Position numbers and translations under genes: made by a program. Source: Parcubacteria group bacterium (GTDB taxonomy: Bacteria; Patescibacteriota; Minisyncoccia; UBA6257; UBA11618). Taken from it: a DNA stretch of 64,000 bases. Positions 597-47,671 of this stretch are shown one piece after another; the stretch's first letter is position 1; every line of letters starts with the position of its first letter. The stretch lies in contig CALRGO010000001.1 of NCBI GenBank assembly GCA_943357895.1, positions 36,724 through 100,723 on the forward strand, read 5' to 3'. The notes under the pieces were generated by a model. It was not told where the DNA came from. It saw only the letters and a list, made by a program, of their open reading frames with translations, and did not search any database.

Positions 597-860
597 TGTC
601 TGACTAATTATTAATATATACCTTTATTTAACGATTTGTCAAGTTTTATGCAAACATCACGTACCGACAAGAAACCAAGGGAATCGCCTCTTCCTCGTAA
701 AAACTCGGTCGAGACACCCCGTTTTTATAGTCGGTTTACGGCAGATGAATCGACCTCGTCGCTGCGCTTCCCTCGGACGCTCCTTACGGAATTTTAACCT
801 CATTGCATTCGGGATAAATTCCTAAGTCGCCTCCGAGTTCGATCCCCCCTAGTGCAATCA

Positions 861-900
861 CCAATAATAAAACCCCTGAACCAGGGGTTTTATTATTGGT
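861..900. terminator. Perfect 18-bp inverted repeat hairpin (CCAATAATAAAACCCCTG / CAGGGGTTTTATTATTGG) downstream of tRNA-Val
   Basis: Inverted repeat seen directly, with A-rich and T-rich stem arms. Acts as a terminator for tRNA-Val on the minus strand. Confidence 0.6.
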
Positions 901-971
901 GGGCGCCAAGGGAATCGAACCCCCGACATCTTCTGTGTAAAAGAAGCGCTCTACCACTGAGCTAGGCGCCC
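897..971 (-). tRNA. tRNA-Val (anticodon UAC)
   Basis: Reverse complement GGGCGCCTAGCTCAGTGGTAGAGCG-CTTCT-TTTACAC-AGAAG-ATGTC-GGGGGTTCGATTCCCTT-GGCGCCC-A-CCA. Canonical cloverleaf; CCA is encoded. Confidence 0.85.
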
Positions 972-4381: not shown

Positions 4382-4412
4382 ATTCACTACCCACTAACCA
4401 CTTTTCACTAAT
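4382..4412. repeat. heptamer tandem array downstream of nusA
   Basis: attcactacccactaaccacttttcactaat. Confidence 0.55.
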
Positions 4413-8722: not shown

Positions 8723-8915
8723 GACCTGACTCCTTGGTTTTTAGGACTATTCCCTTGAAAATCCGCACACCGCGGATACTATTATTATAGTACTATATTA
8801 GTGTGGTTTTGTCAAGTTATTAGAAATTGACGCATAAAAAGCGATACAGCATCATATTCACTAGCCCTATGAACTCGAATAAAAGGATCTTTTTATGACA
8901 AAACGGCTTTAATAG

Positions 8916-9068
8916 CTCATCGAAGAGGCGCGCAATGCCCGACCAACGCCGGAACAAAAAGAAGAGCAACGACGTAGCTTTGCCGCCGGAAACGCCGGCT
9001 TAAGCAATGCGGCAGTTACGAGAGAACTCGTAAATCGCGCTGCCGAGAAAATGGCGAAAAGAGACTAA
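8916..9068 (+). pseudogene. start-less C-terminal gene remnant (50 codons)
   Basis: Coding-like frame LIEEARNARPTPEQKEEQRRSFAAGNAGLSNAAVTRELVNRAAEKMAKRD* opens directly after an in-frame TAG with no ATG/GTG/TTG start. A CCGCGG hairpin terminator follows at 9083-9102. Confidence 0.35.
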
Positions 9069-9112
9069 AAGCAAACCAATAGCCGCGGACACCCATCCGC
9101 GGCTATTATTTT

Positions 9113-9237
9113 GAGCGAGTAACGGGAATCGCCTCTCCCCCTAAAGGGGTCGAAACATCGGTTTTTATAATCGCTCGCTATGCGAGCTCATTAAAAACTC
9201 TCGCCCTTCGGGTTCGATTCCCGTATCCGTCCCATGC
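9113..9237 (-). other. tRNA-Gly-adjacent miniature structured element (copy C1)
   Basis: Read on the minus strand: inverted copy of the tRNA-Gly T arm (ACGGGAATCGAACCCG), a conserved core hairpin (GTTTTTAATGAGCTCGCATAGCGAGCGATTATAAAAAC), then a direct copy of the tRNA-Gly 3' end. The 22-bp direct repeat is 9110-9131 = 9282-9303. About 85% identical to copy C2 at 13467-13587. Confidence 0.55.
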
Positions 9238-9238
9238 T

Positions 9239-9279
9239 GGCAAAAAAAGACTACGCTGTTAACGTAGTCTTTTTTTGCC
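9239..9279. terminator. perfect inverted-repeat hairpin (GGCAAAAAAAGACTACG-ctgttaa-CGTAGTCTTTTTTTGCC) downstream of tRNA-Gly
   Basis: 17-bp perfect stem seen directly. Confidence 0.6.
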
Positions 9280-9285
9280 AGTTTG

Positions 9286-9356
9286 AGCGAGTAACGGGAA
9301 TCGAACCCGTGTATTTTGATTGGCAACCAAACGTACTACCATTGTACTATACTCGC
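9286..9356 (-). tRNA. tRNA-Gly (anticodon GCC)
   Basis: Reverse complement GCGAGTA-TA-GTAC-AATGGTA-GTAC-G-TTTGG-TTGCCAA-CCAAA-ATAC-ACGGG-TTCGATT-CCCGT-TACTCGC-T. CCA is not encoded. Confidence 0.85.
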
Positions 9357-9408
9357 ACTACACAAGGATTATAGTATCGTTTTTCGGCTATAAAATCAAT
9401 TCCTTTTG

Positions 9409-9480
9409 TGTCCTCATGTGGAATCGAACCACAATCGCTTCCTTCGCAGGGAAGCACTCTATCCGTTGAGCTATGAGGAC
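9409..9480 (-). tRNA. tRNA-Arg (anticodon GCG)
   Basis: Reverse complement GTCCTCA-TA-GCTC-AACGGATA-GAGT-G-CTTCC-CTGCGAA-GGAAG-CGAT-TGTGG-TTCGATT-CCACA-TGAGGAC-A. The G34 anticodon (rather than ACG) is unusual for bacteria. Confidence 0.65.
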
Positions 9481-9481
9481 T

Positions 9482-9919
9482 TTAGAAGCGGAGCCAGTGG
9501 CCTAACGCCTCTACGAACGATTCAGTATACTCCGTTTCGTGCAGAAAATCCAAGAGATGCTCGCGAATTGCGCGTTCGCGGGACGGCGGCACGATTATCT
9601 CCAAGCGGGGGCGAATAGAGCTCTTCGGCATGAAATGGAGGGAGTTATCAGATAAAGCAAAGCTCGTAAACTCGCGGTAGCGGTGCATTGTGCCGTCTAT
9701 CACGAGCCCCGTATCGTTAATCTCAAACTCGAAGTGGCGCGGTTTGCGCGTGCCCCACGTAATAACGAGCCCCGTGGCGATAAGGGTGAAAACGAAGAAT
9801 AAAAAGTTATTCTGCCATAAGGCGTATGCGGCGATTACGGCCCCTGCGAGCGCCACAAATAGCGGCCACGCTTCATCCTTTTCGTGATAATGGAATTCCG
9901 GCGACATCCAGCTGATCAT
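9482..9919 (-). CDS. hypothetical membrane protein (145 aa)
   Basis: Two TM helices near the N-terminus; no motif recognised. Confidence 0.45.
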   Translation of the reverse strand: MISWMSPEFHYHEKDEAWPLFVALAGAVIAAYALWQNNFLFFVFTLIATGLVITWGTRKPRHFEFEINDTGLVIDGTMHRYREFTSFALSDNSLHFMPKSSIRPRLEIIVPPSRERAIREHLLDFLHETEYTESFVEALGHWLRF

Positions 9920-9925
9920 ATACAG

Positions 9926-9955
9926 AGTGGTTAGTGGATAGTGGTTAGTGGATAG
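9926..9955. repeat. heptamer tandem array (AGTGGTT/AGTGGAT x4) overlapping the 3' end of the ddl-like CDS
   Basis: gagtggttagtggatagtggttagtggatag. Encodes the C-terminal ...YPLTTIH of the minus-strand protein. Confidence 0.6.
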
Positions 9956-10536
9956 AACGAGCCGACAGACTCGTTAATTTCATCAAGGGTTAAACCGGCA
10001 AGTAATGCGCTGCGCATAAAAAGGCTCGTGTGCGCGAGCGAGGGATTAATATCCACGCCCGTAACGTAGGGAGTGGAACCGTCGACCACCATCCGCACGC
10101 ACGAATGTCCTTTGGCGCCTATGGCACTATACGCCGCATTAGCTAACGCCTGCACCGCGTCCTGCGTAGCTATCGGCATATACCACGCACCGCTTTCATG
10201 AAGCGGGCGGGGGATAGCGTCCACCGGCACAAGCGGGAGAATTTTTCGGCCGCTCCGTATTACTCCGCAAGCGACCTCGTGCCCTGTAATGTGCTTCTGC
10301 ATAAAAAACCTTCCGGCACGCACAGCAACCGCAATTGCCGGCACCACGTCGCCATATTTCGCGACCATCGTGCGCACGGCAGGTACGCCCGCGTTACGGA
10401 CAACGACGACTGCGGGGATTCCGAGAGCACCCACATCTTCGAGCGCAGTTGCAAACGGGGCAACGGCAACACCCTTAGCGCGCAAGGTTTCAAAAAACGC
10501 GTATTCATCCATTCCCCACAGTATACAACAATACAA
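9931..10536 (-). CDS. ddl: D-alanine--D-alanine ligase-like ATP-grasp protein, N-terminally truncated (central + C-terminal domains only)
   Basis: The GIPAVVV...GHEVACGVI...RMVVDG..VTGVDINPSLAHTSLF block matches the Ddl central/C-terminal ATP-grasp domains. The ~100-aa N-terminal domain is absent, and only 50 nt separate the start from argS. The C-terminal tail is built from heptamer repeats. Confidence 0.55.
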   Translation of the reverse strand: MYCCILWGMDEYAFFETLRAKGVAVAPFATALEDVGALGIPAVVVVRNAGVPAVRTMVAKYGDVVPAIAVAVRAGRFFMQKHITGHEVACGVIRSGRKILPLVPVDAIPRPLHESGAWYMPIATQDAVQALANAAYSAIGAKGHSCVRMVVDGSTPYVTGVDINPSLAHTSLFMRSALLAGLTLDEINESVGSFYPLTTIH

Positions 10537-10587
10537 AAGAATCCTCCTTCGCTAAAGCTTCGGAGGATGAAAAGTCCGTAGGACTTT

Positions 10588-12240
10588 TCACATCCGCTCC
10601 GGCACCTCAATACCCAAAAGCCACAGGCCGTTCTTGATCACTTGGGCGGAGGCGACAACAAGCGCTAGGCGAAGGGCGCGAGCCTCGCCAACTTCCAGCA
10701 CCGGCACGGCGTCGTAAAACCGGCTGAACTCCTGCGCGAACTCGTTTAAGAATGTCGCTATGATATGCGGCGCATCGAGCGAATATGCCTGCCGTACCGC
10801 CTGCGGAAACTCCGCAATGCGCTTTAATAAACGCGCTTCGTGAGACGACGGAGTGATTAGTGGGTAGTGATTAGTGGGTAGTGACGCCGAAACGTCGCCC
10901 GCCTTTTCCAAAATAGCCTTGGCGCGCACGTATGCGTACTGGATGTAGGGCGCGCTATTACCTTGGATAGAGAGCGCCGCGTCCCACGAAAAGGCTATGT
11001 CGTGCTCACGGCCCATAGAAAGCATGTTGTATAAAATAGCGCCCACGCCCACTTCCTTAATACCCTTGGTTTTTACCACCGCCTCCTTTAGACCGTCTTC
11101 TAAAAAGACTATCCCGCCTTCACGCGTAGAAATTTTCTTGCCGTTAATCGTAACTACGCCGTAACTTACGTGCTTAAACTTTTCCTCCGGATAACCCATA
11201 AGCCCCAAGGTTTTAAAAATCTGCCGTAAATATAATTCCTGCTCGTGGCCAACCACATAAATTATTTTTTCCGCCTGCGGATATTCCTTAAGCCGCCAGC
11301 GGCCAACCGCGATGTCGCGCGCGCTGTAGAGCGACGCGCCATCTGACTTCACGAGCAAGAAAGAGGGGAGGCCAAACTTATCAAGATTGACTACTACCGG
11401 CCGGCCCTGCCCCGACGAAGCCATGGTTGTTAAGGGGCCCGCCCCGCGAAGCCCAGAGGGCGAAGTGGGGTCGCCGTATGCCGCCGCGCCCTTTACGAGC
11501 GCTTCGTCCACCGCTTCTTTTATAAAGGTCTCATAAAAACTCTCACCGTGCCATAAGTCAAAGTTAATGCCGAATAGGGCATAGACCCGCTCAAAATTCT
11601 TTACGCTTATATCGCGGAACTCCTGCCACAGGGCGCGTAGCTCCACATCACCCCCCTCGAGCTTGCGGAAAAGCTCCCGCGCCTCGTCTTCCAATTCTGG
11701 CGATGACTTTATCTCTTTCGTCATCCGCACGTATAAATCGAGCAAGGTGCGTATTGGGTCTTTTTTAAAGGCTTTCCTATCACCCCACTTTTGGAATGCA
11801 AGCATAATCTTCGCTAAAGACATGCCCCAGTCGCCAAAGTGGTTCGTAGTAATTACCGTATAGCCATTTGCCTTATAGATATTTGCGAGTGCGTGACCAA
11901 TAGCATTGTTGCGCGCATGGCCCATGTGCATAGGCTTCGCAATGTTGGGGGCGGAATATTCGAGCATGACGGTCTTACCCGCGCCCGATGCATTCCATCC
12001 GTACGACTCTTTCTTCGTCATGACCTCGTGGAGTACATGCTCCGTAAGCGCGTTTAAATTAAACGATATGTTTACGTACCGGCCGGTAACGACGACACTA
12101 CCGAATAACGGGTTATTCAACCCGCGAATTTTTTCCGCCACATCTTCCGGCTTTTCGCGGAAGCAGGGGATAGCCAAATCCGCCCCCACGCCCTCGGGTG
12201 GGATCTCTATCTTTGATGCGATCTTCTCTAAGCCGAACAT
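10588..12240 (-). CDS. argS: arginine--tRNA ligase
   Basis: 550 aa with class I HMGH motif (KPMHMGHARN), N-terminal Arg_tRNA_synt_N-like region and DALR-type C-terminus. Two in-frame repeat insertions: heptamer array at 10852-10884 and GC-rich element at 11434-11472. Confidence 0.9.
   Translation of the reverse strand: MFGLEKIASKIEIPPEGVGADLAIPCFREKPEDVAEKIRGLNNPLFGSVVVTGRYVNISFNLNALTEHVLHEVMTKKESYGWNASGAGKTVMLEYSAPNIAKPMHMGHARNNAIGHALANIYKANGYTVITTNHFGDWGMSLAKIMLAFQKWGDRKAFKKDPIRTLLDLYVRMTKEIKSSPELEDEARELFRKLEGGDVELRALWQEFRDISVKNFERVYALFGINFDLWHGESFYETFIKEAVDEALVKGAAAYGDPTSPSGLRGAGPLTTMASSGQGRPVVVNLDKFGLPSFLLVKSDGASLYSARDIAVGRWRLKEYPQAEKIIYVVGHEQELYLRQIFKTLGLMGYPEEKFKHVSYGVVTINGKKISTREGGIVFLEDGLKEAVVKTKGIKEVGVGAILYNMLSMGREHDIAFSWDAALSIQGNSAPYIQYAYVRAKAILEKAGDVSASLPTNHYPLITPSSHEARLLKRIAEFPQAVRQAYSLDAPHIIATFLNEFAQEFSRFYDAVPVLEVGEARALRLALVVASAQVIKNGLWLLGIEVPERM
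10852..10884. repeat. heptamer tandem array inside argS (encodes SLPTNHYPLITPS)
   Basis: agtgattagtgggtagtgattagtgggtagtgacg, which is in frame on the minus strand. Confidence 0.65.
11434..11472. repeat. GC-rich ~38-bp repeat element, copy 1, in-frame in argS (encodes DPTSPSGLRGAGP)
   Basis: ggggcccgccccgcgaagcccagagggcgaagtggggtc is the reverse complement of the element at 39597-39635. Confidence 0.7.
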
Positions 12241-12244
12241 GACG

Positions 12245-12276
12245 AAGTGGATAGTGAGTAGTGGTTAGTGGATAGA
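12245..12276. repeat. heptamer tandem array in the argS / trmL-like spacer
   Basis: agtggatagtgagtagtggttagtggatagat. Confidence 0.6.
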
Positions 12277-12286
12277 TACTACGATA

Positions 12287-12772
12287 CTAGCGTAGTTTAT
12301 TTTTAGCTATTTCGAAAGCGATTATACCAAAGGCGACGGCGACGTTAAGCGACTCCTTTGCGCCATGCATGGGAATACTAATAACGGCGTCGCACTTATT
12401 AATAATCACCCTCGGCAGGCCATCTACTTCATGCCCCACAATGAACGCGAGCTTGTGCATATTGTTTTTTAAGCAATCAGCCTCGTAATAGGGGGCGGCA
12501 TCCGGCGTAAGCTCAACGGCGCATATAAAATATCCCGCAGCTTTTAACTTGCGAATGCAATCAGCCGTGCGGGCGTACTTTTCCCACGGCACGGTTTTTT
12601 CCGCCCCCAGCGCCGTCTTTTCTAACATCTTCCGCGCACTGCCGAGCATGTCCGCCGGAGACGGCGTTATGCCGCACAAATACAGCCGCTCGATACCCGC
12701 GGCGTCCGCCGTACGAAACATAGACCCCACGTTATGCGCGCTTCGTATATTAGATAAAATACCTATTGCCAT
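12287..12772 (-). CDS. SpoU/TrmH-family RNA 2'-O-methyltransferase (TrmL-like)
   Basis: SpoU motif 1 NVGSMFRTADAAG; size ~160 aa. Start placed at MAIGILSN instead of the upstream Met in the ORF track. Confidence 0.7.
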   Translation of the reverse strand: MAIGILSNIRSAHNVGSMFRTADAAGIERLYLCGITPSPADMLGSARKMLEKTALGAEKTVPWEKYARTADCIRKLKAAGYFICAVELTPDAAPYYEADCLKNNMHKLAFIVGHEVDGLPRVIINKCDAVISIPMHGAKESLNVAVAFGIIAFEIAKNKLR

Positions 12773-12888
12773 AGACGCTTGACAGTATATAGCAAAAAGC
12801 GCATTGTGCAATTAGCAGTGCGCCGACGTAGGCGCACATCATAATCATCCTGAAACGAAGGAGCGACACCAAGAAACGAGGAGGTGCC

Positions 12889-13209
12889 ATGTCAAGCATT
12901 CATGAGACAATCCGTATTTATTCCGAAGTACGGAATCTGGCTATTACAGCTCAGATCGACCCCGAGAAAATCGGAAAGGCTAATCTCGTCTACGCCAACC
13001 TGCACGTCCTAATTGTCCGCGCAAAATCCGACGCGGACGCAATCCCCGCCCTACAGGACGCAATCATGAACCTACCCATGGAGCTTATCTCTGAATTGAA
13101 TGTCGCAACCGGATACGACGAATTAAGGAATGCGATCTTTGATTTACCTATGTCGCTTATGGACGCCTTAAGCGTCGTCATCAAATTCCAACTTGCGGAA
13201 GCTGAGTAA
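12889..13209 (+). CDS. hypothetical protein (106 aa)
   Basis: Strong SD GAGGAGG 6 nt upstream, followed by a terminator. Confidence 0.5.
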   Translation: MSSIHETIRIYSEVRNLAITAQIDPEKIGKANLVYANLHVLIVRAKSDADAIPALQDAIMNLPMELISELNVATGYDELRNAIFDLPMSLMDALSVVIKFQLAEAE

Positions 13210-13235
13210 AGAAATAACGTAGCACGATGCCGCGT

Positions 13236-13290
13236 TTACGGCGGGGGAGAGTCAAACGAGCCACGACTCTCCTCCCGCCGTATTATTTTT
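13236..13290 (+). terminator. intrinsic terminator (CGGCGGGGGAGAGTC...GACTCTCCTCCCGCCG + T-run)
   Basis: Long GC hairpin followed by tattattttt. Confidence 0.65.
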
Positions 13291-13337
13291 CAGATTGAAA
13301 ACGCCGCCGAAAAAGCATATGATACCGATACCGCAAA

Positions 13338-13421
13338 GGAGGGATAGCCTAGCGGTTAAGGCAAGGGATTGCTAATCCCTGACTCGCAAGGGTCTCGTGG
13401 GTTCGAATCCCACTCCCTCCG
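13338..13421 (+). tRNA. tRNA-Ser (anticodon GCU)
   Basis: GGAGGGA-TA-GCCT-AGCGGTTAA-GGCA-A-AGGGA-TTGCTAA-TCCCT-long variable arm GACTCGCAAGGGTCTC-GTGGG-TTCGAAT-CCCAC-TCCCTCC-G. Confidence 0.85.
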
Positions 13422-13424
13422 CAG

Positions 13425-13466
13425 TACCAATAAAAATACCCCACGGACGGGGTATTTTTATTGGTA
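13425..13466. terminator. perfect inverted-repeat hairpin (TACCAATAAAAATACCCCG / CGGGGTATTTTTATTGGTA) downstream of tRNA-Ser
   Basis: Seen directly. Confidence 0.6.
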
Positions 13467-13587
13467 TCGTGAAGAGTGGGATTCGAACCGAAGGTCGAAG
13501 TTTTTAATGAGTTCGCAAAGCGAACGATTATAAAAACGAAGATTTCGACTGAGCTTTAGCGAAGGAGGGGCGAATCCTACCCCTCAT
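13467..13587 (+). other. tRNA-Ser-adjacent miniature structured element (copy C2)
   Basis: Inverted copy of the tRNA-Ser T arm (GTGGGATTCGAACC), then the conserved core hairpin GTTTTTAATGAGTTCGCAAAGCGAACGATTATAAAAAC (compensatory C/T and G/A changes relative to C1), then a degenerate direct copy of the tRNA-Ser 3' end (GGCGAATCCTACCCCTC). Confidence 0.55.
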
Positions 13588-32610: not shown

Positions 32611-33414
32611 GTGGAAGCGCATAGCAGTTATCCACTAACTTCTCCGTCATTTCTACGGTATCCTAAAGAGGTGTTAGGGCTCAAAGCAAAAGCAGGCCTG
32701 TTGTTTTTCGTATGCGCTGGCGTTTTCGTCGGCCTTGTCGTGTTCGGCAACACTGTTGCCCGTAATGAAATGAATACCGACTCTGAAAAAAAGGCTGACT
32801 CTACCGCCCCACAAGCAATCGACTCGCTCCAAAACGCCATCGGCGAATCGGTGCCGATTACAACCGAAGCGCAACCTGAAATTACGCCTATAGGCACGCT
32901 AACAGCGAATAGCGATACCAACCTCACGCGTAATCTCGCCGCACTTATTGGTAAAAACATCGTGGATAAAAATCCCGAAGGGCCAGCGGGGGATAACCTT
33001 ACCGTTATGGGTGCAGACGGCATGGCGGATATCGCGGTTACAGAATCACTTAAAAACTTTAACCCTGCATATTTCTCTCCCGAGATCCTCCAGAGCGAAC
33101 TTATAACCCTCAGCACGCAAACAGCCGCGGCATACCGCGCAGAAGCCGAAAGAATAATAGCCGAAACGGAAATGCAAACCCCGCCGCCGATAGGCGACCT
33201 CATCGCAAGCCAAATGGCGGAATTTGCACGGCGCTATAAGACGCAAGGCGCCGCCCTCCGCGCACTCCCCGTACCATCCGCACTTACAACAGAACACATG
33301 AAAGCCATCCGCATAGCGCTCGGTAAACAGCGCATATTCGAAGCTGTTGCGGATTACGAAAATGATCCGATATACGCCATGCTCGCGCTTAAGTTATTAG
33401 ACACTCTCAAATGA
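32611..33414 (+). CDS. hypothetical single-pass membrane protein, first gene of the T4SS-like operon
   Basis: TM near the N-terminus (LLFFVCAGVFVGLVVF), periplasmic remainder. True start uncertain (possibly GTG near 32670). Confidence 0.45.
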   Translation: MEAHSSYPLTSPSFLRYPKEVLGLKAKAGLLFFVCAGVFVGLVVFGNTVARNEMNTDSEKKADSTAPQAIDSLQNAIGESVPITTEAQPEITPIGTLTANSDTNLTRNLAALIGKNIVDKNPEGPAGDNLTVMGADGMADIAVTESLKNFNPAYFSPEILQSELITLSTQTAAAYRAEAERIIAETEMQTPPPIGDLIASQMAEFARRYKTQGAALRALPVPSALTTEHMKAIRIALGKQRIFEAVADYENDPIYAMLALKLLDTLK

Positions 33415-34787
33415 AACGTATTCTCGCATCACTTGCCATATCGTTCCTTGTACTCGGTGTTTTACCTGCGCTCCCCAAAGAGCGCGCGCACGCCCAGTTC
33501 GGGATAGATGCCGCCGTCACCTTAGCGGCAGAAGCTGTACAAGAAACCATAAAAAAACGTTTCTTCGACATGATCGTCGACCAAATGGTGAACTGGATCC
33601 AAGGTGGTGGCAAGCCCTTATTTATACAAAACTGGAACGCCTTCCTCGCCCAGTACGGCAACATCGTGACCGGCGACCTTTTAGCCGAAATGAAAATAGC
33701 GGGCATCTGCCGGCCGTTCGGCATGCAGTTGCAACTCGCCGTGCTCCAACCCCCGCGCTTTTCGGGTCAAATACGGTGCACGTTAGACCAAGTCGTGCGC
33801 AACATGGTCGGCTTTTATAACAACTTTTCGACCGGCGGTTTCGTGGCATACCGCGAGCAATGGCAACCGCAAAACAATTTCTACGGCGCACTGCTCCTTG
33901 CAATAAATGAAAAAGAAACCCGTATTGCGGACAAACGCTTTGCTGGACTGCAAGAAGCGCAAACAGGAGGTGGCTTTTTGGGTCAGAAAAAATGCGATGA
34001 GAACGGGCGAAATTGCCGTATCGTGACACCCGGTATGCAGATAGGTGCTGCGGCCGCGAAAGTAATCGGCGCCGACCTCGACTACATTGTTAACTCTAAA
34101 AGCATGGCGGCATATATCGCCGCGATTTCAGACGCACTCATCAACCGCGTCGTCCGCGAAGGCGTGAGCGGGTTCCAAGGCGTGGTATCCGCGAACGCTC
34201 CGCAAATCGGCTACATCCCCACCCAACCCGTAAACGCCGCACCCTGCTCCGGCCTCACGGGCGATGCCTTAAATGCATGCCGCGCACTCGAAGGATATAA
34301 AACGGGCAACGCGACGCTTATTAAAACAAGTCACATGACGCAAATAAGCGACACCTTAACCCCACTCCTCGCTGGGCTTACGGACTTACTCGCCATACAA
34401 TCCGCACAGCAAGTACTTGTAAACCGCACAAGCGAACTAAATAACTGCCAAATTGGCAGGGGGGTAAGTGGTAGGGAAATAACGATAACGGCGCTCGCCG
34501 TGGAGCAAAAAGCGCTCGAAGACGTGACGGTGGCGATTACGCAACTCCAGCAAATAACGACCCCACTTACAAACGCGAAAAATACGCTCATGAACGAAAC
34601 GAGTACCGACTTCGACGTGCTTTCGAGCTATATGACGGGGCAAGCCGGCGTGGGTCGCCTCCTAAACAAGTCGCAAGCCGAGGCGTACGCCGCAAAAACT
34701 AAGGCGGATCGCGACGCCCTTACGGCACGCTCGGCTACGCGCCTACCCGAACTGCAAATATTACTGCAAAAATGCATAAGCTCATAA
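33411..34787 (+). CDS. secreted hypothetical protein (458 aa) with signal peptide
   Basis: Cleavable signal (..LPALPKERAHA); overlaps neighbours by 4 and 16 nt. Confidence 0.55.
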   Translation: MKRILASLAISFLVLGVLPALPKERAHAQFGIDAAVTLAAEAVQETIKKRFFDMIVDQMVNWIQGGGKPLFIQNWNAFLAQYGNIVTGDLLAEMKIAGICRPFGMQLQLAVLQPPRFSGQIRCTLDQVVRNMVGFYNNFSTGGFVAYREQWQPQNNFYGALLLAINEKETRIADKRFAGLQEAQTGGGFLGQKKCDENGRNCRIVTPGMQIGAAAAKVIGADLDYIVNSKSMAAYIAAISDALINRVVREGVSGFQGVVSANAPQIGYIPTQPVNAAPCSGLTGDALNACRALEGYKTGNATLIKTSHMTQISDTLTPLLAGLTDLLAIQSAQQVLVNRTSELNNCQIGRGVSGREITITALAVEQKALEDVTVAITQLQQITTPLTNAKNTLMNETSTDFDVLSSYMTGQAGVGRLLNKSQAEAYAAKTKADRDALTARSATRLPELQILLQKCISS

Positions 34788-37700
34788 GAACTATCGCAAT
34801 AATTGTCACCCTCACAACGCTTTTCGGTGCAGTTATTTTTACACACGCGCAAATGGCAATGCCTAATATCCCCGGGCAAGACATGCCAATAAAAGTCCAA
34901 GAGACGGCAAAAAATAATCCCGGAGCGCAGACCGTCAGCCCAAGTTTCAATCCTATTCCCACCGTTGCCGACATAGTAAGCGGCATAGGCGGATCCTTCT
35001 TGGGTTGGATCAGCTTAAAGGCCATCGGCTACGTCTCATTCACGCTAAGCTATATCGCCGGACTTATCGGCTCGACGGCGTTTACGCTCGCGGGAATCTT
35101 AGTAGAATTAGGTCTCTATTTCAACACCACAATCCTCAACAGTCCGATAGTCCAGCTCGGCTGGCGCTTCTGCCGCGACCTCGCGAACTTAGGCTTCACG
35201 ATTGGTATTGTAGTCATCGCATACGCCACTATGCTCGGCATCGAAAGCTATGGCATGAAGAAGATTCTTATAAACTTCGCCTTCGCGGCTATTATCGTAA
35301 ACTTCAGCTTCTCTATAGCGGGGTTCGCGATAGACATATCGAACATGCTCACGCACTTTTTCGTGAACGCCTCAATCGGGGGCGGTGGCGTGTCGGGGTC
35401 AGGGGCAAACATCCATAAATTTGCCGAAACTCTTGCATCCGCCTTCAGCCCGCAAAAACTACTTATAACGGACTCTCTCAATCTAAAGGCATACGAGTCG
35501 CTTGCGGACGACGGCATGATTGCCGCAGTAATATCTATATTCTTCGTCGCGCTCTTCACCGCCCTCGCCGCGCTCGGCATGCTTATGGTAGGACTTACCA
35601 CTATTTCGCGATTTATACGTCTTTCAGGGCTTGTAATTGTCATGCCAATTGCAATCCTTTGTGCCGCATTCCCCAACACAAGAAAGTGGTGGGGGAAATG
35701 GTACGATGATTTTTTTAGCCAACTTACCTACCTGCCCATAGCGACATTCTCTATGTATCTCGTCATTATGTTCGTGCAAATTAAGGCGGATGTGGGATTC
35801 GAAACAAAAGGGATAGATATGAAAAATCTCATAAATTCCTTTGAACAGGCAAAAACTGCGGGGAGCGGAATTACCGCAACCAAGACCCTTGAGCTGATGG
35901 CTGCGCCGCTTCAAACGATTACGGATATGGTACTCGTACTTGCCATGTTATTCATCGGCATCACCAAGTCGGCTAAATTGAGCGGCGCGGGAGGGGATAT
36001 CGCTCTCAAGTGGACGACGGGGTTGAAAGACTGGGCAGTAGGCGCGCCAAAAGGAGCTGCCGGATGGGCGGGCCGTAAATACTTGAGCGGCGGCGGAGAC
36101 GGAACAAAAGAAGGTAATCGTGGCACGCGGCTCGCAAGCTTTTTACAACGAATCCCTCTCATTAGTCGTTTTGCGCCCCAAGTAAATAAATTCGCCGCAG
36201 GGACGAGTAAAAATCTCGGCAATCTCGAAACTGAATACAAAGGTATGGGCGACGTACAGCTACGAAACGCCCTCTACAACCCCGACATTAAGCTTAACCC
36301 CGAGCGCATGGCGGCGGCGGCAAAAGAAGCCGTTGCGCGCGGACTACTGAACAACACCGATCAAGAAAAAAATATATCACAGGAAAAATTAAACGAATTT
36401 ATCCCCGCCCTCAAACGCTACGGCTTCGACACAGAAATATTAAAGAAGGCGCCGCATCTCTATGGTAAATTCGGCTTAAATATTGAGAAAAACAACGAAG
36501 GGGAATATATAAATAAGGAAGATGGTAAAAAGCTTGACGACGCCATAAAAGCCTTTAAGCCCGAAGATGGGGAAGATCTGCCCGTGGAGGCGCTTGAGGA
36601 CATTGAAGTGGTTCGGCGGCTTTCCGGCGACCAACTAGCAAAACTACCGAAGAACAAAGAACATCGCGCGGCATTCTCAGACACCATCATCCGCCTACGA
36701 GAAAAAATAGGGTCTACGGAATTCGATAAGTATATGAAAAAAGCGTTTGCCAAAAAAGAAGCGGCGGCAGCACTCACCCCACAACTTCTCGGTAATAAAG
36801 ATGTAGTCCGTAATCTCACAAACGATCATTTAAAGTATCTCAGTGACACTGGAAAGGAAAAACAACGAGATGCATTCCTTGCGACTATCAACGAAAAAGA
36901 TACCACCACTGGAGAATACAAGTTATCAGAAAAAGAATTCACCGAATTCATGGGGAGTAATTTTGCAAAGGCTAAAGACATCAACGAAATTAATCCGGAT
37001 ATCATCCGCAACGATCGCATATTCGGCAAGCTGCAGGGGATGCATATCAGCCAACTCCAAAAAGAACCGGAAACGGCGCAACATATTGCCGTGCTCGAAA
37101 AATTACGCGACGAATACCGAAACGCTTTTGCTGACCCAAAAACCCTTACCCGCCTTGATAGCCTCGCAAAAGTTATCGTAGATAACAAAGATAATTCAAC
37201 TTGGAGCGCAATCGATACAGCTGAAGGAAAAGCCCCGTTCAACGAAATCGAAATGGATTACCGTAGGCGCCACCCCGACGAAGAAAAACAGCAAAAGAAA
37301 GAAAAAATAAAAGTAGAGATAAAAGAAGAAAAGCAGAAAGAAAAAGGGTGGTGGGAAGATGATAATAAGGGGGGTAATCCGCCGAGCGCAGGCCCGCAGA
37401 AGCCCCCTCAAAATCCGCCCGCACCACCCTCCTCACCAACAGGAGGATCGGCTTCAGTAGCACCGACATATACGTTAGCACCACAAAAACCAACACAGCC
37501 GGTAACACCACCTCCGCAGCCAGCGCCCGCAACCACTCCGCAGCCGAAGCCGACACCTAATAAACCTCAGCGCACGGAACCCAAAGAAACGGAACCAACG
37601 AACTCAAAGGGCCCTGATATCGGAAGAATGATAGACGCCGTACTGGAGAGCGAATCAAGAACGAATAACCCCGAATACGTCCTGCAGGAAGAATTCCCAG

Positions 37701-37930
37701 AACCACCCCCACTCCTCGTACCTATGACACCAAAGACGACGCCGATTGCGCCGCCTGACCTCAACAAGCTCGCAAGGATTGAAGAAAATCCAATACAAGA
37801 GGGAAGTAAGACTGCATCCGTTACGGCAACGCCCCCACCCACCCCGATTCTACCCGAACCGATACGTACCACCTTGCAGAAAGAAAAGGATGAGAAGGAT
37901 AATCAAGAAAGGGGAAATAACACCATATGA
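34772..37930 (+). CDS. large polytopic membrane protein, VirB6/TrbL-like, with long K/E- and Pro-rich C-terminal extension
   Basis: 1052 aa: signal peptide, ~6-8 TM helices in residues ~70-330, then a coiled/charged region and PPSAGPQKPPQNPPAPP... tail. Confidence 0.5.
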   Translation: MHKLIRTIAIIVTLTTLFGAVIFTHAQMAMPNIPGQDMPIKVQETAKNNPGAQTVSPSFNPIPTVADIVSGIGGSFLGWISLKAIGYVSFTLSYIAGLIGSTAFTLAGILVELGLYFNTTILNSPIVQLGWRFCRDLANLGFTIGIVVIAYATMLGIESYGMKKILINFAFAAIIVNFSFSIAGFAIDISNMLTHFFVNASIGGGGVSGSGANIHKFAETLASAFSPQKLLITDSLNLKAYESLADDGMIAAVISIFFVALFTALAALGMLMVGLTTISRFIRLSGLVIVMPIAILCAAFPNTRKWWGKWYDDFFSQLTYLPIATFSMYLVIMFVQIKADVGFETKGIDMKNLINSFEQAKTAGSGITATKTLELMAAPLQTITDMVLVLAMLFIGITKSAKLSGAGGDIALKWTTGLKDWAVGAPKGAAGWAGRKYLSGGGDGTKEGNRGTRLASFLQRIPLISRFAPQVNKFAAGTSKNLGNLETEYKGMGDVQLRNALYNPDIKLNPERMAAAAKEAVARGLLNNTDQEKNISQEKLNEFIPALKRYGFDTEILKKAPHLYGKFGLNIEKNNEGEYINKEDGKKLDDAIKAFKPEDGEDLPVEALEDIEVVRRLSGDQLAKLPKNKEHRAAFSDTIIRLREKIGSTEFDKYMKKAFAKKEAAAALTPQLLGNKDVVRNLTNDHLKYLSDTGKEKQRDAFLATINEKDTTTGEYKLSEKEFTEFMGSNFAKAKDINEINPDIIRNDRIFGKLQGMHISQLQKEPETAQHIAVLEKLRDEYRNAFADPKTLTRLDSLAKVIVDNKDNSTWSAIDTAEGKAPFNEIEMDYRRRHPDEEKQQKKEKIKVEIKEEKQKEKGWWEDDNKGGNPPSAGPQKPPQNPPAPPSSPTGGSASVAPTYTLAPQKPTQPVTPPPQPAPATTPQPKPTPNKPQRTEPKETEPTNSKGPDIGRMIDAVLESESRTNNPEYVLQEEFPEPPPLLVPMTPKTTPIAPPDLNKLARIEENPIQEGSKTASVTATPPPTPILPEPIRTTLQKEKDEKDNQERGNNTI

Positions 37931-38649
37931 CACTCGAACAAATTGCCCGCCTCTACGTAATCTTTAAGACGCTCCAACCGGAAATTAAAGAATGGATCGC
38001 GTCCGACGACACGAGCGCCATCGTGAAGTCTATTGCCGCGCGGTTTATCTTGTCTGACGAACAGGAGCGCAAGCTCCCACTACTCGTCCTCCGTCTTGTC
38101 ACGCAAGATTTACCACCAGAAAGCTTTAAAGCAGAGCTTGCGAAAGAAACGGGTGTGGACGCAGATCTCGCTAAAAGCATTACTGAGGCGATAGCAAAAG
38201 AGGTGATAGAGCCCATCGGAGCGGCCCTCCGCTATGGCGGGATAAACACGAACCTCTTAGGGTTCAACGCTCCGGCTCCCACTTCCCCACTTCGCCCTGC
38301 GGGCTTCGAGGGGCAGGCGCCTACGCATTCCGAACCAGCGCCACAAGCGCAAACTACAACTGAAGCGCCTACGGAAACCGTCACCACGCCAGCACCGACA
38401 CCTCTACAACCGTTCATCCTCCACGAAGAGCCGCGCGCAGCAGCCGCACAAAGCGGTACGAGGTCCTTCAGTTACTCCCCACAGGCGGATACGGGCGTGG
38501 AAAGCACCGCTTCTCCGCGCGTCGTAATCGAGCGCGTCGTGCATTACAGCCAACTCCGCACCCCGCTTAATATTGCGAGCACAAATAAAAATATACCAAG
38601 CGGAGATCAGCCAAAACCCAAGCTGCCACAATCTAAGTGGTTCGTATAA
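37927..38649 (+). CDS. hypothetical protein (240 aa) with in-frame GC-rich repeat
   Basis: Overlaps upstream gene by 4 nt. Repeat at 38285-38321 encodes PTSPLRPAGFEGQAP. Confidence 0.5.
   Translation: MTLEQIARLYVIFKTLQPEIKEWIASDDTSAIVKSIAARFILSDEQERKLPLLVLRLVTQDLPPESFKAELAKETGVDADLAKSITEAIAKEVIEPIGAALRYGGINTNLLGFNAPAPTSPLRPAGFEGQAPTHSEPAPQAQTTTEAPTETVTTPAPTPLQPFILHEEPRAAAAQSGTRSFSYSPQADTGVESTASPRVVIERVVHYSQLRTPLNIASTNKNIPSGDQPKPKLPQSKWFV
38285..38321. repeat. GC-rich repeat element, copy 3
   Basis: ccccacttcgccctgcgggcttcgaggggcaggcgcc. Confidence 0.7.
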
Positions 38650-39131
38650 AACCCATGCAATTCCAAGTACCACAATACATCGATGTCGAGGATAAGATTG
38701 TAGGACCCTTAACCCTTAAGCAGTTTTTCTATATCGCGACGGGATTTCTTACGATATTCGTTTCATTCTTTATTCTTACGACATGGCTCTGGCTTATAAC
38801 GTCCGTAGTTGTCGGCTCCACATCACTCGCCTTTGCGCTTATAAAATATAATGGCAGACCGCTCATGACCGTGACCATCGCCGCCCTGCACTACTATATG
38901 GGCGGGCGCACCTATACGTGGCAAAAAATAGATATAACGAAGAGACAGGCTCCGGCAGGATTACTCGCAAAACTCGGACTCACTATGACAGCAGGCACGC
39001 GGCCAGTTGCGGGGCGTGAAACATCCGTAAACGGATTCTTTAGCCGCAGCCTGCCGGCACAAGATAGGGCGGAAATAATCCGCCGCACAGATGGCGACAG
39101 AAGCGTCGCCAAACGAATAGACTATAGGTAA
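38637..39131 (+). CDS. PrgI/VirB3-like small two-TM T4SS protein
   Basis: 164 aa with a GPLTLKQFFYIATGF motif followed by two TM helices, positioned directly upstream of the VirB4-like ATPase as VirB3/PrgI homologs typically are. Confidence 0.5.
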   Translation: MVRIKPMQFQVPQYIDVEDKIVGPLTLKQFFYIATGFLTIFVSFFILTTWLWLITSVVVGSTSLAFALIKYNGRPLMTVTIAALHYYMGGRTYTWQKIDITKRQAPAGLLAKLGLTMTAGTRPVAGRETSVNGFFSRSLPAQDRAEIIRRTDGDRSVAKRIDYR

Positions 39132-39140
39132 AATCTAAAT

Positions 39141-39842
39141 ATGGCTCAAGAACCTCTCGCAACCCAAAACCTCCTCGAAGTCGAACGCATCGAGCGCAAC
39201 TGCATCGTGCTGAAAGACGGCGGCCTGCGCTCGGTGATTCTCGTATCGGGCATGAACTTCGAACTGCGCTCGGAAGACGAGCAAAATGCAGCACTAGGGA
39301 GCTACCAAAATTTCCTAAACGGACTCGATTTTTCCGTACAGATTTTTATACATTCACGAAAAATTAACATCGACGGATACATACAGGAACTTTCGGGTAT
39401 CGAGCGGCAGGAGGTGAATGATTTATTAAAAGGGCTTATCGGGGGGTACAAAGACTTCGTGGCTTCCCTTGTTGCCGACAACCCGATTATGGAAAAAACA
39501 TTTTTCGTAATCGTGCCGTACGACTCCGTACTACCCGCAAACCAACGCGCGATATTCGACGCTATTGCCGGATTCTTCAAGCGGAAAAAAGTAGATGACC
39601 CCACTTCGCCCTCTGGGCTTCGAGGGGCGGGCCCCACCCCCGACTCGCAAAATGAAAGCGCACGCACCGGCGTAGGGGACAGTGCTTTTGCCGCACTCGC
39701 CCAGCGCACCGAGCAGGTAGTAAGTGGCCTTTCGCAAATCGGCCTGCGCGCCGTACCACTCGAAGAAGACGAGCTCGCGGAACTCTTATACAACCTCTAT
39801 AACCCCGAAACAGTGGAACGCCACGTCATCCCACAAGAATAA
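39141..39842 (+). CDS. hypothetical T4SS-associated protein (233 aa), weakly reminiscent of a VirB4 N-terminal region
   Basis: IVLKDGGLRSVILVSGMNFEL...FSVQIFIHSRKINIDGY block. Carries the in-frame GC-rich repeat at 39597-39635 (DDPTSPSGLRGAGPTP). Confidence 0.45.
   Translation: MAQEPLATQNLLEVERIERNCIVLKDGGLRSVILVSGMNFELRSEDEQNAALGSYQNFLNGLDFSVQIFIHSRKINIDGYIQELSGIERQEVNDLLKGLIGGYKDFVASLVADNPIMEKTFFVIVPYDSVLPANQRAIFDAIAGFFKRKKVDDPTSPSGLRGAGPTPDSQNESARTGVGDSAFAALAQRTEQVVSGLSQIGLRAVPLEEDELAELLYNLYNPETVERHVIPQE
39597..39635. repeat. GC-rich repeat element, copy 4
   Basis: gaccccacttcgccctctgggcttcgaggggcgggcccc. Confidence 0.7.
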
Positions 39843-39846
39843 ACCC

Positions 39847-41541: not shown

Positions 41542-41947
41542 GCCGGAGCCTAAAATAGGCGGCATCGAAGCTTTAGTCATGGTCGGGCTCGCAGCTCTCT
41601 TTGATATTGCAGATCTTCTTGCCACATTTCTCGACGCTTTTTTCGGTATGGGGGAGCTTATTAAGTTTTTTATCAACATTGTCGCTTCCGTAACGCTCTG
41701 GCTGTGGGTTATTATGAAGGATGTGGGGCCGACGCGGATACTTGCAGGGTCGATTTTGGAATTAGTGCCGATTATAAACGTCCTGCCGATGCGCACTGTA
41801 GCGATGGCTGCGACTATATGGCTCGACTGGCACCCGAAAGAAGCAGAGATCGCGGAAGATTTTATGCCGAAAATTAAAAACCCTAAGCGCATGCTCGGAA
41901 AAAAAGCTCTTGCCGCAAAGGCAGCTAAAACAACGCAAGCCCTATGA
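41525..41947 (+). CDS. hypothetical membrane protein (140 aa)
   Basis: 3-4 TM helices; overlaps the VirB4-like gene by 17 nt. Confidence 0.45.
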   Translation: MNEENKPEPKIGGIEALVMVGLAALFDIADLLATFLDAFFGMGELIKFFINIVASVTLWLWVIMKDVGPTRILAGSILELVPIINVLPMRTVAMAATIWLDWHPKEAEIAEDFMPKIKNPKRMLGKKALAAKAAKTTQAL

Positions 41948-44468: not shown

Positions 44469-44491
44469 TACCCACTAATCACTATCCACTC
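44468..44491. repeat. heptamer tandem array (CACTANC form)
   Basis: ctacccactaatcactatccactc. Confidence 0.55.
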
Positions 44492-47466: not shown

Positions 47467-47671
47467 CCAGTGGATAACATCCGTATAACATGTTGCCAAA
47501 GCGCCACACACCTTACATGATTACCAGAGCACCTGAAAGTTATCCCCTTAGAAACGCCGTAACTATCCACAGGAAGACGCTGTCAAAAAAGGGCTTTCTA
47601 AAGGGGAAAAGAGAGTTATCCACCTATCCGCTATACCTACTATTACTACTAACTATATATAGAAAGAATAT
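47467..47671. promoter_or_regulatory. oriC: at least four DnaA boxes plus AT-rich unwinding element between dnaA and dnaN
   Basis: TGGATAACA (47471), GTTATCCCC (~47539), CTATCCACA (~47564), GTTATCCACC (~47614); AT-rich ctactattactactaactatatatagaaagaatat. Confidence 0.7.

Follow-up and report, generated by a model that had tools for sequence, protein, structure and literature searches.

Behind three intact tRNA genes in the 64-kb stretch of DNA analysed here (the window), those for Gly, Ser and Val, lies a short structured unit in which an inverted copy of the T-arm of the neighboring tRNA and a direct copy of its 3' end enclose a conserved core. Across 11 contigs of related Patescibacteria, some 22 copies or remnants lie downstream of genes for seven tRNA species, and the structure of the core is maintained under selection. 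The family looks like an undescribed miniature mobile element aimed at the ends of tRNA genes. Tentatively, we read it as non-coding and non-autonomous, inserting at tRNA T-loops, with folded arms that rebuild a copy of the target; mobility itself is what we infer. An earlier note on this DNA knew two loci only and had not recorded the third, long-form copy behind tRNA-Val; the tRNAs, inverted T-arm copies and core likeness that it described at Gly and Ser were all found where it had placed them.

Architecture of the units

Every unit follows the same order: the tRNA gene up to U55, X, H, X', a Y-shaped core and a second X. X is the tRNA sequence from C56 of the T-loop to the 3' end, H is a perfect hairpin of A-run, GC pairs and T-run, and X' is the reverse complement of the T-arm, spanning both sides of the U55/C56 junction. 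The layout is S1, turn, antisense, turn and S2, with turns of 3-4 nt, and the top strand of the element immediately left of C56 reads GAGRGG. Units measure about 120-200 nt and are devoid of ORFs or gene remnants; long, short and mini forms are seen, with the edges and the 3' part common to all, and orientation and position relative to the tRNA are fixed in every copy (Table 1).

Table 1. Positions of the repeat units and adjoining tRNA genes in the window
Feature	Position	Strand	Remarks
tRNA-Gly(gcc), intact	9285/9286-9356	-	ARAGORN and Rfam tRNA, 72.3 bits
X(left) at Gly	9282-9303	-	C56 to discriminator, plus CAAA; left copy of the 22-nt direct repeat TTTGAGCGAGTAACGGGAATCG, perfect at both sites
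H at Gly	9237-9281		perfect hairpin, A-run / GC stem / T-run; 19-nt arms 9237-9255 / 9263-9281
X' at Gly	9209-9224	-	ACGGGAATCGAACCCG; perfect reverse complement of T-arm (positions 50-65), covers both sides of U55/C56
P1b mini-hairpin at Gly	9204-9212	-	CCC-GAA-GGG
Short-form core at Gly	9132-9208	-	ends GAGAGG; 122.9 bits
P3 hairpin of Gly core	9161-9198	-	A/U stem, tandem G·A loop, apical stem
P4 hairpin of Gly core	9131-9156	-
X(right) at Gly	9110-9131	-	second 22-mer copy; first 10 nt pair with X' (helix P1)
tRNA-Ser(gct), intact	13338-13422	+	ARAGORN and Rfam tRNA
X(left) at Ser	13404-13421	+
H at Ser	13424-13466		perfect hairpin; 18-nt arms 13425-13442 / 13449-13466
X' at Ser	13474-13489	+	GAGTGGGATTCGAACC; 16 nt, perfect complement of 13400-13415
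Short-form core at Ser	13490-13570	+	111.5 bits; P3 = 13500-13537
X(right) at Ser, decayed	13571-13585	+	CGAATCCTACCCCTC
tRNA-Val(tac), intact	897-971	-	ARAGORN and Rfam tRNA
H at Val	861-899		perfect hairpin, overlaps encoded CCA
X' at Val	836-860	-	T-arm part 837-849 = GGGGGGATCGAAC, plus decayed acceptor complement
Long-form core at Val	687-835	-	41.9 bits
X(right) at Val	675-686	-	12 nt, CGATTCCCTTGG
Whole long-form unit copy at Val	675-860	-

The perfect 22-mer repeat reported at tRNA-Gly is present in both copies. H begins there 3 nt past the end of the tRNA, and the inverted T-arm copy, 16 nt of it perfect, lies within a 47-nt palindrome (83%), with a decayed complement of the acceptor strand at 9225-9236. 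The direct copy of the tRNA 3' end, claimed for both loci, holds at Gly and has decayed at Ser, where 7 perfect nt are followed by 11/16 matching and a C-to-T change keeps the P1 pairing as G·U. Compared with the short cores, the long core at Val has an extra GGAATT...AATTCC hairpin and a bigger apical domain and retains the 3' part of P3, P4 and GAAGAGG. The hairpins following the tRNAs are perfect, as had been stated; their label as terminators derives from their shape, a simple terminator scan having passed over them because the T-run sits within the stem. Protein coding by the units was rejected, as the short ORFs across them are not conserved; the ATG of CCGATG opens 5 codons at Gly and 19 at locus L127. 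Beside the Gly unit there is an ORF remnant, previously called start-less, which shares its frame with an ATG at 8895 and is interrupted by two stop codons.

The att-like geometry seen first at tRNA-Gly is general, with the direct repeat beginning at C56 in all 17 complete right junctions. Its length varies between 7 and 67 nt (the scored perfect matches span from 7 nt to 36 nt or more, and the L125 arrays reach 62 and 67 nt). A complete displaced tRNA 3' end is present at Gly (22 nt), at L124 Arg (19 nt) and at L001 Val (20 nt), the last being orthologous to the window site at Val, whose X(right) has no acceptor part; in six copies the fragment is 11-14 nt long. The right-hand Ser junction, CCTC(C)/ATTAA, is common to the window, L123 and L128, and the outer repeat at this shared junction halts one base short of the discriminator, which would not be expected of a simple displaced tRNA end and counts against the mobile reading. 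Within X(right), decay and deletion affect the acceptor part, while the first 10-11 nt, which form the P1 strand, are intact in all copies apart from a single substitution that keeps the pairing as G·U; at L032 both arms diverge from the tRNA sequence and still pair perfectly over 15 bp. The arms are thus selected as a helix.

Integration at tRNA genes classically duplicates the 3' part of the tRNA, from the T-loop onward, as a direct repeat (PMC4383910, PMC1762012), and the units might be regarded as attL/attR scars left by the decay of ordinary islands or prophages that carried an integrase. We reject this reading, to which we assign almost no probability. The same structured core of 75-150 nt is maintained by covariation at seven tRNA species, gene remnants are missing from the interior, the inverted arm is left unexplained, and neither phage and plasmid BLAST with the cores nor three viral contig scans gave a match. 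The earlier suggestion of scars or miniature derivatives therefore survives in its second half, a miniature derivative offering the best family resemblance, and fails in its first on account of the shared covarying core.

Fold and strand of the core

Paired cells account for 94.5% in the proposed fold, compared with 44-52% when the partners are slid, and 15 pairs have changed on both sides, compared with 2-4 when slid; none of 500 shuffles reached the observed pairing or covariation values. Fold z-scores range from -3 to -5, and five different apical stems are found, each of them complementary. The compensatory change from GCTCGC/GCGAGC to GTTCGC/GCGAAC between the Gly and Ser cores was confirmed. 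These two cores (9149-9199 and 13499-13549) are 86% complementary over 51 nt and are the only places in the window where a degenerate core pattern matches, with 0.00 matches expected. The earlier note had held that a lack of other copies and of covariation would speak against its proposal; the copies are many and the covariation is strong. The third pair of P1b follows the T-stem of the respective tRNA from copy to copy (columns 22/27: CG 7, UA 3, AU 1). Helices P2 (CGAGA/UCUCG) and P4 (GUYUC/GAGGC) are mutually exclusive; either fits the data, and the Arg copies lack P2.

The wobble pairs are highly asymmetric, with 28 G·U cells to 1 A·C, which assigns the core fold to the tRNA-sense strand; the sense strand also folds slightly more stably than the antisense in 5 of 6 copies. 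A local T-arm hairpin on the opposite strand, as in a tRNA-like, Y-RNA-like small RNA, was considered and discarded, as it is not conserved at Ser and the wobbles favor the other strand. One U·G pair is invariant in 13 of 13 copies and the core contains tandem G·A loops. Both are commoner in RNA than in DNA sites, and they count against a mobile-DNA reading.

A tRNA-linked non-coding RNA, made by read-through of H or by 3' processing and with copy-number changes as a secondary matter, would account for these properties. In one form of this idea, X' might engage the T-arm as an antisense or clamp, kept masked by X(right), and so affect tRNA maturation, stability or termination. Small RNAs arise from tRNA 3' external transcribed spacers, 3'ETS-leuZ being an example, and a functional RNA could similarly derive from the same-strand stretch downstream of the tRNA; unlike those spacers, however, the units are separated from the tRNA by a strong hairpin and are repeated, polymorphic and tRNA-matched. 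The strong covariation, the sense-strand wobbles and fold stability, the invariant U·G, the tandem G·A loops, the constant orientation and position beside the tRNA and the long persistence of the Ser and Gly units all speak for an RNA. On the other hand, consensus scans predict no sense promoter between H and the unit and no 3' end signal or terminator after it, and the promoter of the next gene follows X(right) directly, so that the unit is not an obvious RNA gene. Furthermore, H has the shape of a strong hairpin with a T-run, core architecture is very different among the short, long and mini forms, and a search of the window and three loci against Rfam 15, at gathering and E-value thresholds, returned tRNAs only and nothing over the elements at E up to 10. 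Taking these points with the behavior of the copies described below, we consider a non-coding RNA unlikely, with a minor though real chance of being correct.

Distribution and turnover

The tRNAs that carry units are Gly(gcc), Ser(gct), a second Ser, Val(tac), Ile(tat), Arg(gcg) and Arg(ccg), and the hosts belong to one Patescibacteria clade, Paceibacteria/Harrisonbacteria-like. About half of the tRNA genes of the clade carry a unit, occupancy at every tRNA varies among relatives, and relatives at ~60% ArgRS identity are wholly without, all of which weighs against an RNA gene and differs from the pattern, raised in the earlier note, of a general trailer present at every tRNA. A pattern scan of metagenomes was too permissive, with 3 real loci among the 120 returned, and that of genomes gave one real locus and one chance match.

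Copy number differs even between very close strains. Loci L125 and L126, with 99.93-99.98% identity across 11 kb, are distinguished by a single 157-bp unit flanked by a 33-nt repeat. The 'empty' site of L126 retains half of hairpin H and is hence a deletion product; a truly naive empty site was not found among the loci compared, nor was a circular or free form of the unit observed. Contigs of a 98.7%-identical strain terminate inside both window elements. Units are tandem at L125 Val and truncated at L125 Ile, L123 Arg and L123 Ser, and arrays of mixed subfamilies at a single tRNA, with the older unit distal, are found at L123 Ser and L128 Ser. Such truncated, tandem and internally deleted copies, and a one-unit difference between 99.9%-identical strains, are not what a resident RNA gene would lead one to expect. 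The structured-trailer alternative offered by the earlier note is weakened by the truncated copies and the strain-level presence and absence, as well as by the lack of a promoter or 3' signal.

Some sites are nevertheless old. The window and L127 Gly units align at 79%, with ArgRS proteins 67% identical, and this retention at Gly, together with the shared outer Ser junction, is long for an element that can be removed by deletion between direct repeats. Cores also appear to have moved independently of their arms: those of L125 Val and Ile are identical from GGCGAGAG onward, between arms that are tRNA-specific, and the window Gly core is closer to the L001 Val core (85% identity) than to the L127 Gly core (77%). 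In the L134 remnant, the left arm is of the Arg(ccg) type and the right arm resembles Arg(gcg). Four tRNA-Arg(ccg) loci, checked for copies or an autonomous element, yielded one remnant only.

Two further explanations bear on these data. The first supposes immobile sequences, formed by fold-back template switching at the terminator hairpin, with gene conversion via the T-loop (TCGAACC / CGAWTCC) then spreading the core. The S1-turn-antisense-turn-S2 layout is the product expected of two fold-back switches, the core edges fall at universally conserved T-loop bases, and the identical L125 cores and mixed L134 arms would follow. Yet the same rare event would be required at seven tRNAs, and neither the compensatory upkeep of the core, P1 and P1b nor the arrays of different subfamilies at one site are explained, which makes this account improbable. 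The second supposes a small retroelement, in which a read-through RNA of X', core and X is copied into DNA at a T-loop nick, the bottom strand (...GGAATCG-3') priming on the 3' end of the RNA and variable second-strand nicks giving the variable duplication. The precise junction of the core at C56 with a variable other edge, the structure of the sense strand and the 5'-truncated second copy at L123 Ser, which keeps its 3' end and X, would all fit, and a site behind strong tRNA promoters would supply the RNA. However, a reverse transcriptase was found neither in the window nor in the neighborhoods, 3'-truncated copies occur too, and the inverted arm remains unexplained; the duplicated repeats hold trailer sequence and lack an added CCA, and mature tRNA therefore plays no part. 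We judge this origin very improbable.

Proposed mechanism and known systems

For the mobile reading that we tentatively prefer, a mechanism can be outlined. The unit H-X'-core-X is placed such that the tRNA stays intact, with a second 3' part, from C56, on the far side. The sense strand would fold into a Y in which X' pairs both with X (P1) and with a 3-nt copy of T-stem positions 51-53 (P1b); P1 and P1b together would rebuild the double-stranded T-arm of the target, with the core in place of T54-T55. This folded single strand may be the substrate for recombination by an enzyme encoded elsewhere in the genome, with strand exchange at U55/C56 of the tRNA gene. An incoming unit would bring a replacement tRNA 3' end and hairpin, shifting the old 3' end and any resident units downstream, and units would be lost through recombination between direct repeats; cores may be homogenized or swapped among tRNA loci. 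The single-stranded intermediate, the crossover point, the trans-acting enzyme and the matching of arms to a new tRNA are all putative elements of this scheme. The sole hint of how arms for a new tRNA might be acquired is the mixed-arm L134 remnant, a gap that counts against the mobile reading, as does the absence of enzyme genes, a naive site and a free form. Genes for an integrase, a transposase, an HUH nuclease or a reverse transcriptase were not found among the 58 window ORFs scanned or in the gene lists of 17 related loci.

Islands inserting at tRNA genes restore an intact gene and displace a fragment of the original (PMC4383910), and phage Ms6 uses a crossover in the T-loop (PMC1762012). 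The units resemble such integrative elements, that is, tyrosine-integrase islands and prophages including Ms6, under the Islander definition, in the regenerated tRNA, the direct 3' copy from the T-loop, the tandem arrays with older units distal and the loss by repeat recombination. They differ in being geneless units of 120-200 nt with no integrase inside or nearby, in having a single core across seven tRNA specificities and a repeat of 7-67 nt, and in their additional inverted T-arm copy and strand-specific selected fold. The logic of the proposed mechanism is that of the folded single-strand substrates of integrons and CTX phage (PMC3442271, PMC4792948). As in attC sites and the attP(+) hairpin, an imperfect hairpin of one strand would rebuild the duplex of a recombination site, structure is conserved over sequence, an unpaired region lies at the presumed crossover and, as for Xer-exploiting elements, the enzyme would act in trans. 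Unlike these, the target is a tRNA T-loop rather than attI or dif and R/L boxes are lacking; GTTCGAW departs from the GTTRRRY of attC, with the junction after TT instead of before. A recombinase of the IntI or XerCD kind was not identified for the units in the window or the neighborhoods examined.

MITEs and REPINs are likewise small, non-coding, multi-copy, hairpin-forming, located by terminators, patchy among strains and disruptive to assembly, and include, as here, shorter forms related to longer ones by internal deletion. The arms of our units, however, are locus-specific copies of tRNA sequence and not a family-wide terminal inverted repeat, the duplication lacks the fixed length seen in MITEs, and the link to tRNA 3' ends is strict and in a single orientation, with no known transposase or RAYT partner (no RAYT gene is present in the window). 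Group I introns and trans-splicing ribozymes offer a different likeness, as X' pairs in guide-like fashion with both sides of a junction after U and the core ends in G directly before the copy of the downstream tRNA part; yet the core is far too small and free of group I features, U55 faces A rather than G, Rfam gave no intron or ribozyme match, and the tRNA is intact without splicing. The junctions, judged on sequences only, do not suit IS200/IS605-like ends, the GTTC target of IS91, the TT core of serine recombinases or the G/TT of integrons; both are without TT, and a fixed cleavage motif is absent. A guide scaffold with a 3' guide, in the homing style of TnpB or CRISPR-transposons, was also set aside, there being no nuclease or transposon genes or ends, and because the guide would hit the intact tRNA gene itself. 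No account of elements of this kind emerged from searches of the literature.

A stronger form of the mobile reading holds that the arms write the choice of target and that one trans-acting enzyme mobilizes all variants, making the unit, at ~120 nt, a reprogrammable, guide-like insertion system. We regard this as doubtful, and bolder still would be a version in which an RNA form behaves as a trans-splicing unit that swaps the 3' part of the tRNA.

If mobile, the units would be the smallest known integrative elements that target tRNA genes, and unusual in serving many tRNA targets with one core, the target being encoded in the arms. They would suggest a mode of recombination guided by a folded copy of the target, which changes to some 15 nucleotides could redirect. 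They would also bear on assembly breaks at tRNA genes and on the annotation of tRNA gene fragments. Were they RNA instead, they would constitute a new class of structured RNA linked to tRNA 3' ends, and the choice between DNA and RNA is directly testable with existing groundwater metagenomes and metatranscriptomes. For the organisms themselves, mobility of the units would bear on how the tiny genomes of the candidate phyla radiation tolerate repeats at essential tRNA genes.

Distribution of the elements

Pattern scanning of representative genomes located the core of the element, a small non-coding repeat 3' of tRNA genes, next to tRNA-Val in a genome bin of Candidatus Harrisonbacteria (contig L001), and a pattern scan of metagenomes, in which AT-rich chance matches were dominant, gave three genuine loci (contigs L003, L032, and L119). 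The arginyl-tRNA synthetase (ArgRS) gene, located between the Gly and Ser loci of the window, served as a homology anchor, and syntenic contigs of relatives were recovered via its homologues (59-100% protein identity). A profile search, followed by a covariance model, brought up many further copies, the window's Val copy among them. In total, about 22 copies or remnants are spread across 11 contigs, behind tRNA-Gly(gcc), Ser(gct), a second Ser species (L119), Val(tac), Ile(tat), Arg(gcg), and Arg(ccg). Roughly half of the examined tRNA genes within the clade carry an element, and the set of occupied tRNAs varies from genome to genome; two contigs with about 60% ArgRS identity (L129 and L130) have none. 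An Rfam search of the window (E up to 10) returned tRNAs and no other family, no sequence match to the element was found outside this clade, viral contigs, phages, and plasmids included, and a literature search found no description of such elements.

An earlier note had reported two copies, at tRNA-Gly and tRNA-Ser. Both are present, as is the perfect 22-nt repeat at tRNA-Gly, and each tRNA is followed by a perfect hairpin, beyond which the T-arm of that tRNA recurs as a perfect 16-nt reverse complement. A third copy, behind tRNA-Val, had gone unreported. A degenerate core pattern matches in the window solely at the Gly and Ser cores (0.00 expected). No element follows the window's tRNA-Ile, tRNA-Arg(gcg), or tRNA-Arg(ccg), and the orthologous Val site holds a long form in the window versus a short form in L001.

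Features of the window and of related contigs
Feature	Position	Strand	Remark
tRNA-Gly(gcc)	9285-9356	-	tRNA prediction
tRNA-Ser(gct)	13338-13422	+	tRNA prediction
22-mer direct repeat at tRNA-Gly	9110-9131 / 9282-9303		perfect match
Gly and Ser cores	9149-9199 / 13499-13549		86% complementary to each other
Third element, long form	675-860	-	about 190 nt; search match at 664-856; 3' of tRNA-Val(tac) 897-971
Interrupted ORF	8895-9068	+	terminator hairpin 9077-9108
CCACTAWCCACT motif	12246-12271	-	ArgRS ATG 12240
CCACTAWCCACT motif	9926-9951	-	ORF ATG 9919
CCACTAWCCACT motif	4391-4402	+	ORF at 4419
CCACTAWCCACT motif	44472-44490	+	
dnaA and dnaN	46081-48784		cumulative GC skew minimum at about 47-48 kb
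Type IV secretion-like cluster	32611-44188		TrbL/VirB6-like, PrgI, TraG-type ATPase, T4SS pilin
Element with arms of a second tRNA-Ser species	L119 1-330		
LigT / 2H-phosphoesterase gene	L123 3997-4518		2'-5' RNA ligase family
tRNA-Arg(ccg) and palindrome	L134 7729-7810		

Several other features were observed. The ORF beside the Gly copy, previously described as a start-less remnant, has an ATG in its frame and is broken by two consecutive stops between MTKRL and LIEEARN...; it matches nothing in Pfam, the syntenic relatives lack a homologue, and it possesses its own promoter-like site and terminator hairpin. The heptad-like motif CCACTAWCCACT occurs 14 times in the window against 0.21 expected, mostly just 5' of start codons, and may be a leader or translation element. 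Since dnaA and dnaN coincide with the GC skew minimum, the window contains the replication origin; genes to its left lie mostly on the + strand and thus point at it. The secretion-like genes are interspersed with ORFs that lack a Pfam match. On the related contig L123, the LigT gene stands directly 3' of the tRNA-Ser elements with its own promoter, and is missing at the same place in the window. The 190 nt available upstream of the L119 element, back to the contig start, lack the tRNA cognate to its arms; this stretch (CGCGAGCGAAGCGAGCG...) may derive from another long-form unit, as a fragment of it.

Anatomy and predicted fold

Read on the tRNA strand, the order of parts is the same in every complete unit. 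The 5' portion of the gene (positions 1-55) is intact and is followed by X, which runs from C56 to the end of the acceptor 3' strand and takes in a further 0-45 nt of trailer. H, a perfect hairpin of 15-21 bp whose 5' arm is rich in A and whose 3' arm is rich in T, begins 0-3 nt past the tRNA. A decayed stretch, left over from a complement to the acceptor strand (22 nt of it are still perfect at tRNA-Arg of L124, and 19 nt in L134, from the same genome bin), leads to X', in which T-arm positions 65 back to 51 or 50 recur as a perfect reverse complement. A turn of 3-4 nt comes next, then three bases (N'GG) again matching T-stem positions 51-53 of the same tRNA, the core (short, long, or mini, ending GAGRGG), and a second X, X(right), beginning at C56. 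From this order and complementarity, X' pairs with X(right) as helix P1 (10 bp) and with N'GG as helix P1b (3 bp), the two forming a double-stranded T-arm copy with the core in place of T54-T55. Across all 17 complete right junctions, the direct repeat has C56 as its left edge. It is scored as perfect over 7 nt at the shortest and at least 36 nt at the longest, and it reaches 62 and 67 nt in the arrays of contig L125. No conserved ORF was found inside the units. Because the units are gene-less and one structured core is common to seven targets, the earlier suggestion that they could be scars of integrative elements is rejected, and decayed island scars are extremely improbable.

At the Gly and Ser loci, all four folds (both strands) are more stable than shuffles (z -3.1 to -5.0). 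In an alignment of 13 short forms (A4), standard pairs occupy 94.5% of cells, versus 44-52% with partners slid 1-3 columns; both-sided pair changes number 15 versus 2-4 slid, and none of 500 shuffles attains the observed values. Compensatory changes are seen in the A/U stem (U-A to C-G, G-C to A-U) and the P4 hairpin (C-G to U-A), U·U is replaced by G-C adjoining a conserved tandem G·A, and the apical stems exist in five different versions, complementary every time. The third P1b pair is C-G, U-A, or A-U, tracking the tRNA. The first 10-11 nt of X(right), its P1 part, are intact in all copies save one change that keeps pairing as G·U, and the acceptor part is decayed or deleted; in L032, both arms diverge from the tRNA sequence, yet pair perfectly with each other over 15 bp. 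To judge from the aligned copies, the unit fold is under selection. Its non-Watson-Crick cells comprise 28 G·U against 1 A·C, with one U·G in 13 of 13 copies, which argues that the predicted structure is present on the tRNA-sense strand, as RNA or single-stranded DNA.

A tRNA-linked non-coding RNA would fit the wobble pairs, the G·A motifs, and the long retention of some sites. However, transcription signals are lacking and copies are truncated and polymorphic, and we consider this reading rather unlikely. Promoter prediction returned nothing between H and the unit, and at several loci the next gene's promoter directly follows X(right) with no terminator in between.

Turnover, and possible exchange of cores

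Over 11 kb, L125 and L126 are 99.93-99.98% identical, and both encode the same ArgRS protein, but a 157-bp unit between tRNA-Arg and tRNA-Gly is present in L125 and absent in L126. The bounding repeat (33 nt) takes in the 5' half of H, and L126 is therefore a product of repeat-mediated deletion, not a naive site. L125 also has two tandem units at Val (period 150 nt) and one unit plus a 3'-truncated unit at Ile. L123 retains just the 5' part of a long form at Arg, and at Ser a full unit is followed by a 5'-truncated one from another subfamily; in L128, the Ser site has a mini form and then a very different long form. The outermost Ser junction (...CCTCC/ATTAA) is common to the window, L123, and L128, so this site is old, and later entries came from the tRNA side. 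A contig of a 98.7%-identical strain (L131, matching window 9298-13431) has both ends inside the Gly and Ser elements; the repeats thus break assemblies at tRNA genes.

Core grouping does not follow tRNA identity. The Val and Ile cores of L125 are the same beyond the tRNA-specific first bases, and the window's Gly core is 85% identical to the L001 Val core versus 77% to the Gly core of L127. The L134 tRNA-Arg(ccg) has behind it a young, near-perfect palindrome of Arg(ccg) type, a core reduced to the P4 hairpin, and a right arm that resembles the one at tRNA-Arg(gcg) in the same genome. Such a makeup suggests that an element passed between two tRNA loci and had its left arm re-templated, and hints that core and right arm may move together, the left arm being copied from the new neighbour. 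Local fold-back rearrangement with gene conversion is a quite improbable account of the units.

Possible mechanism

The element resembles tRNA-integrating elements, folded recombination sites, and miniature repeats, yet departs from each in defining features. Elements of the first kind restore the tRNA gene that they enter and leave a displaced fragment behind (PMC4383910), and crossover in the T-loop has a precedent (PMC1762012). Their geometry is that of the units, but ordinary integration leaves X' unexplained. No integrase, transposase, HUH nuclease, or reverse transcriptase was found among the 58 window ORFs or in gene lists around 17 related loci; a small retroelement is very improbable.

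In integron attC and the CTX-phage attP(+) hairpin, the arms of a folded single strand rebuild the target duplex (PMC4792948, PMC3442271), a likeness the units would share. By this analogy, the most likely mechanism, which we hold tentatively and at slightly less than even confidence, is that the active form is such a folded strand, since X' makes sense under it. X' is complementary to both sides of U55/C56 and the unit's own top strand has GAGRGG left of C56, so that the strand exchanged from the tRNA gene would be fully paired. In the boldest reading, an unlikely one, the arms would be a guide setting the target for a single enzyme. The folded-strand mechanism would involve an enzyme, a single-stranded intermediate, and a matching of arms to new tRNAs, for which palindrome correction against the neighbouring tRNA, as suggested by L134, is a candidate.
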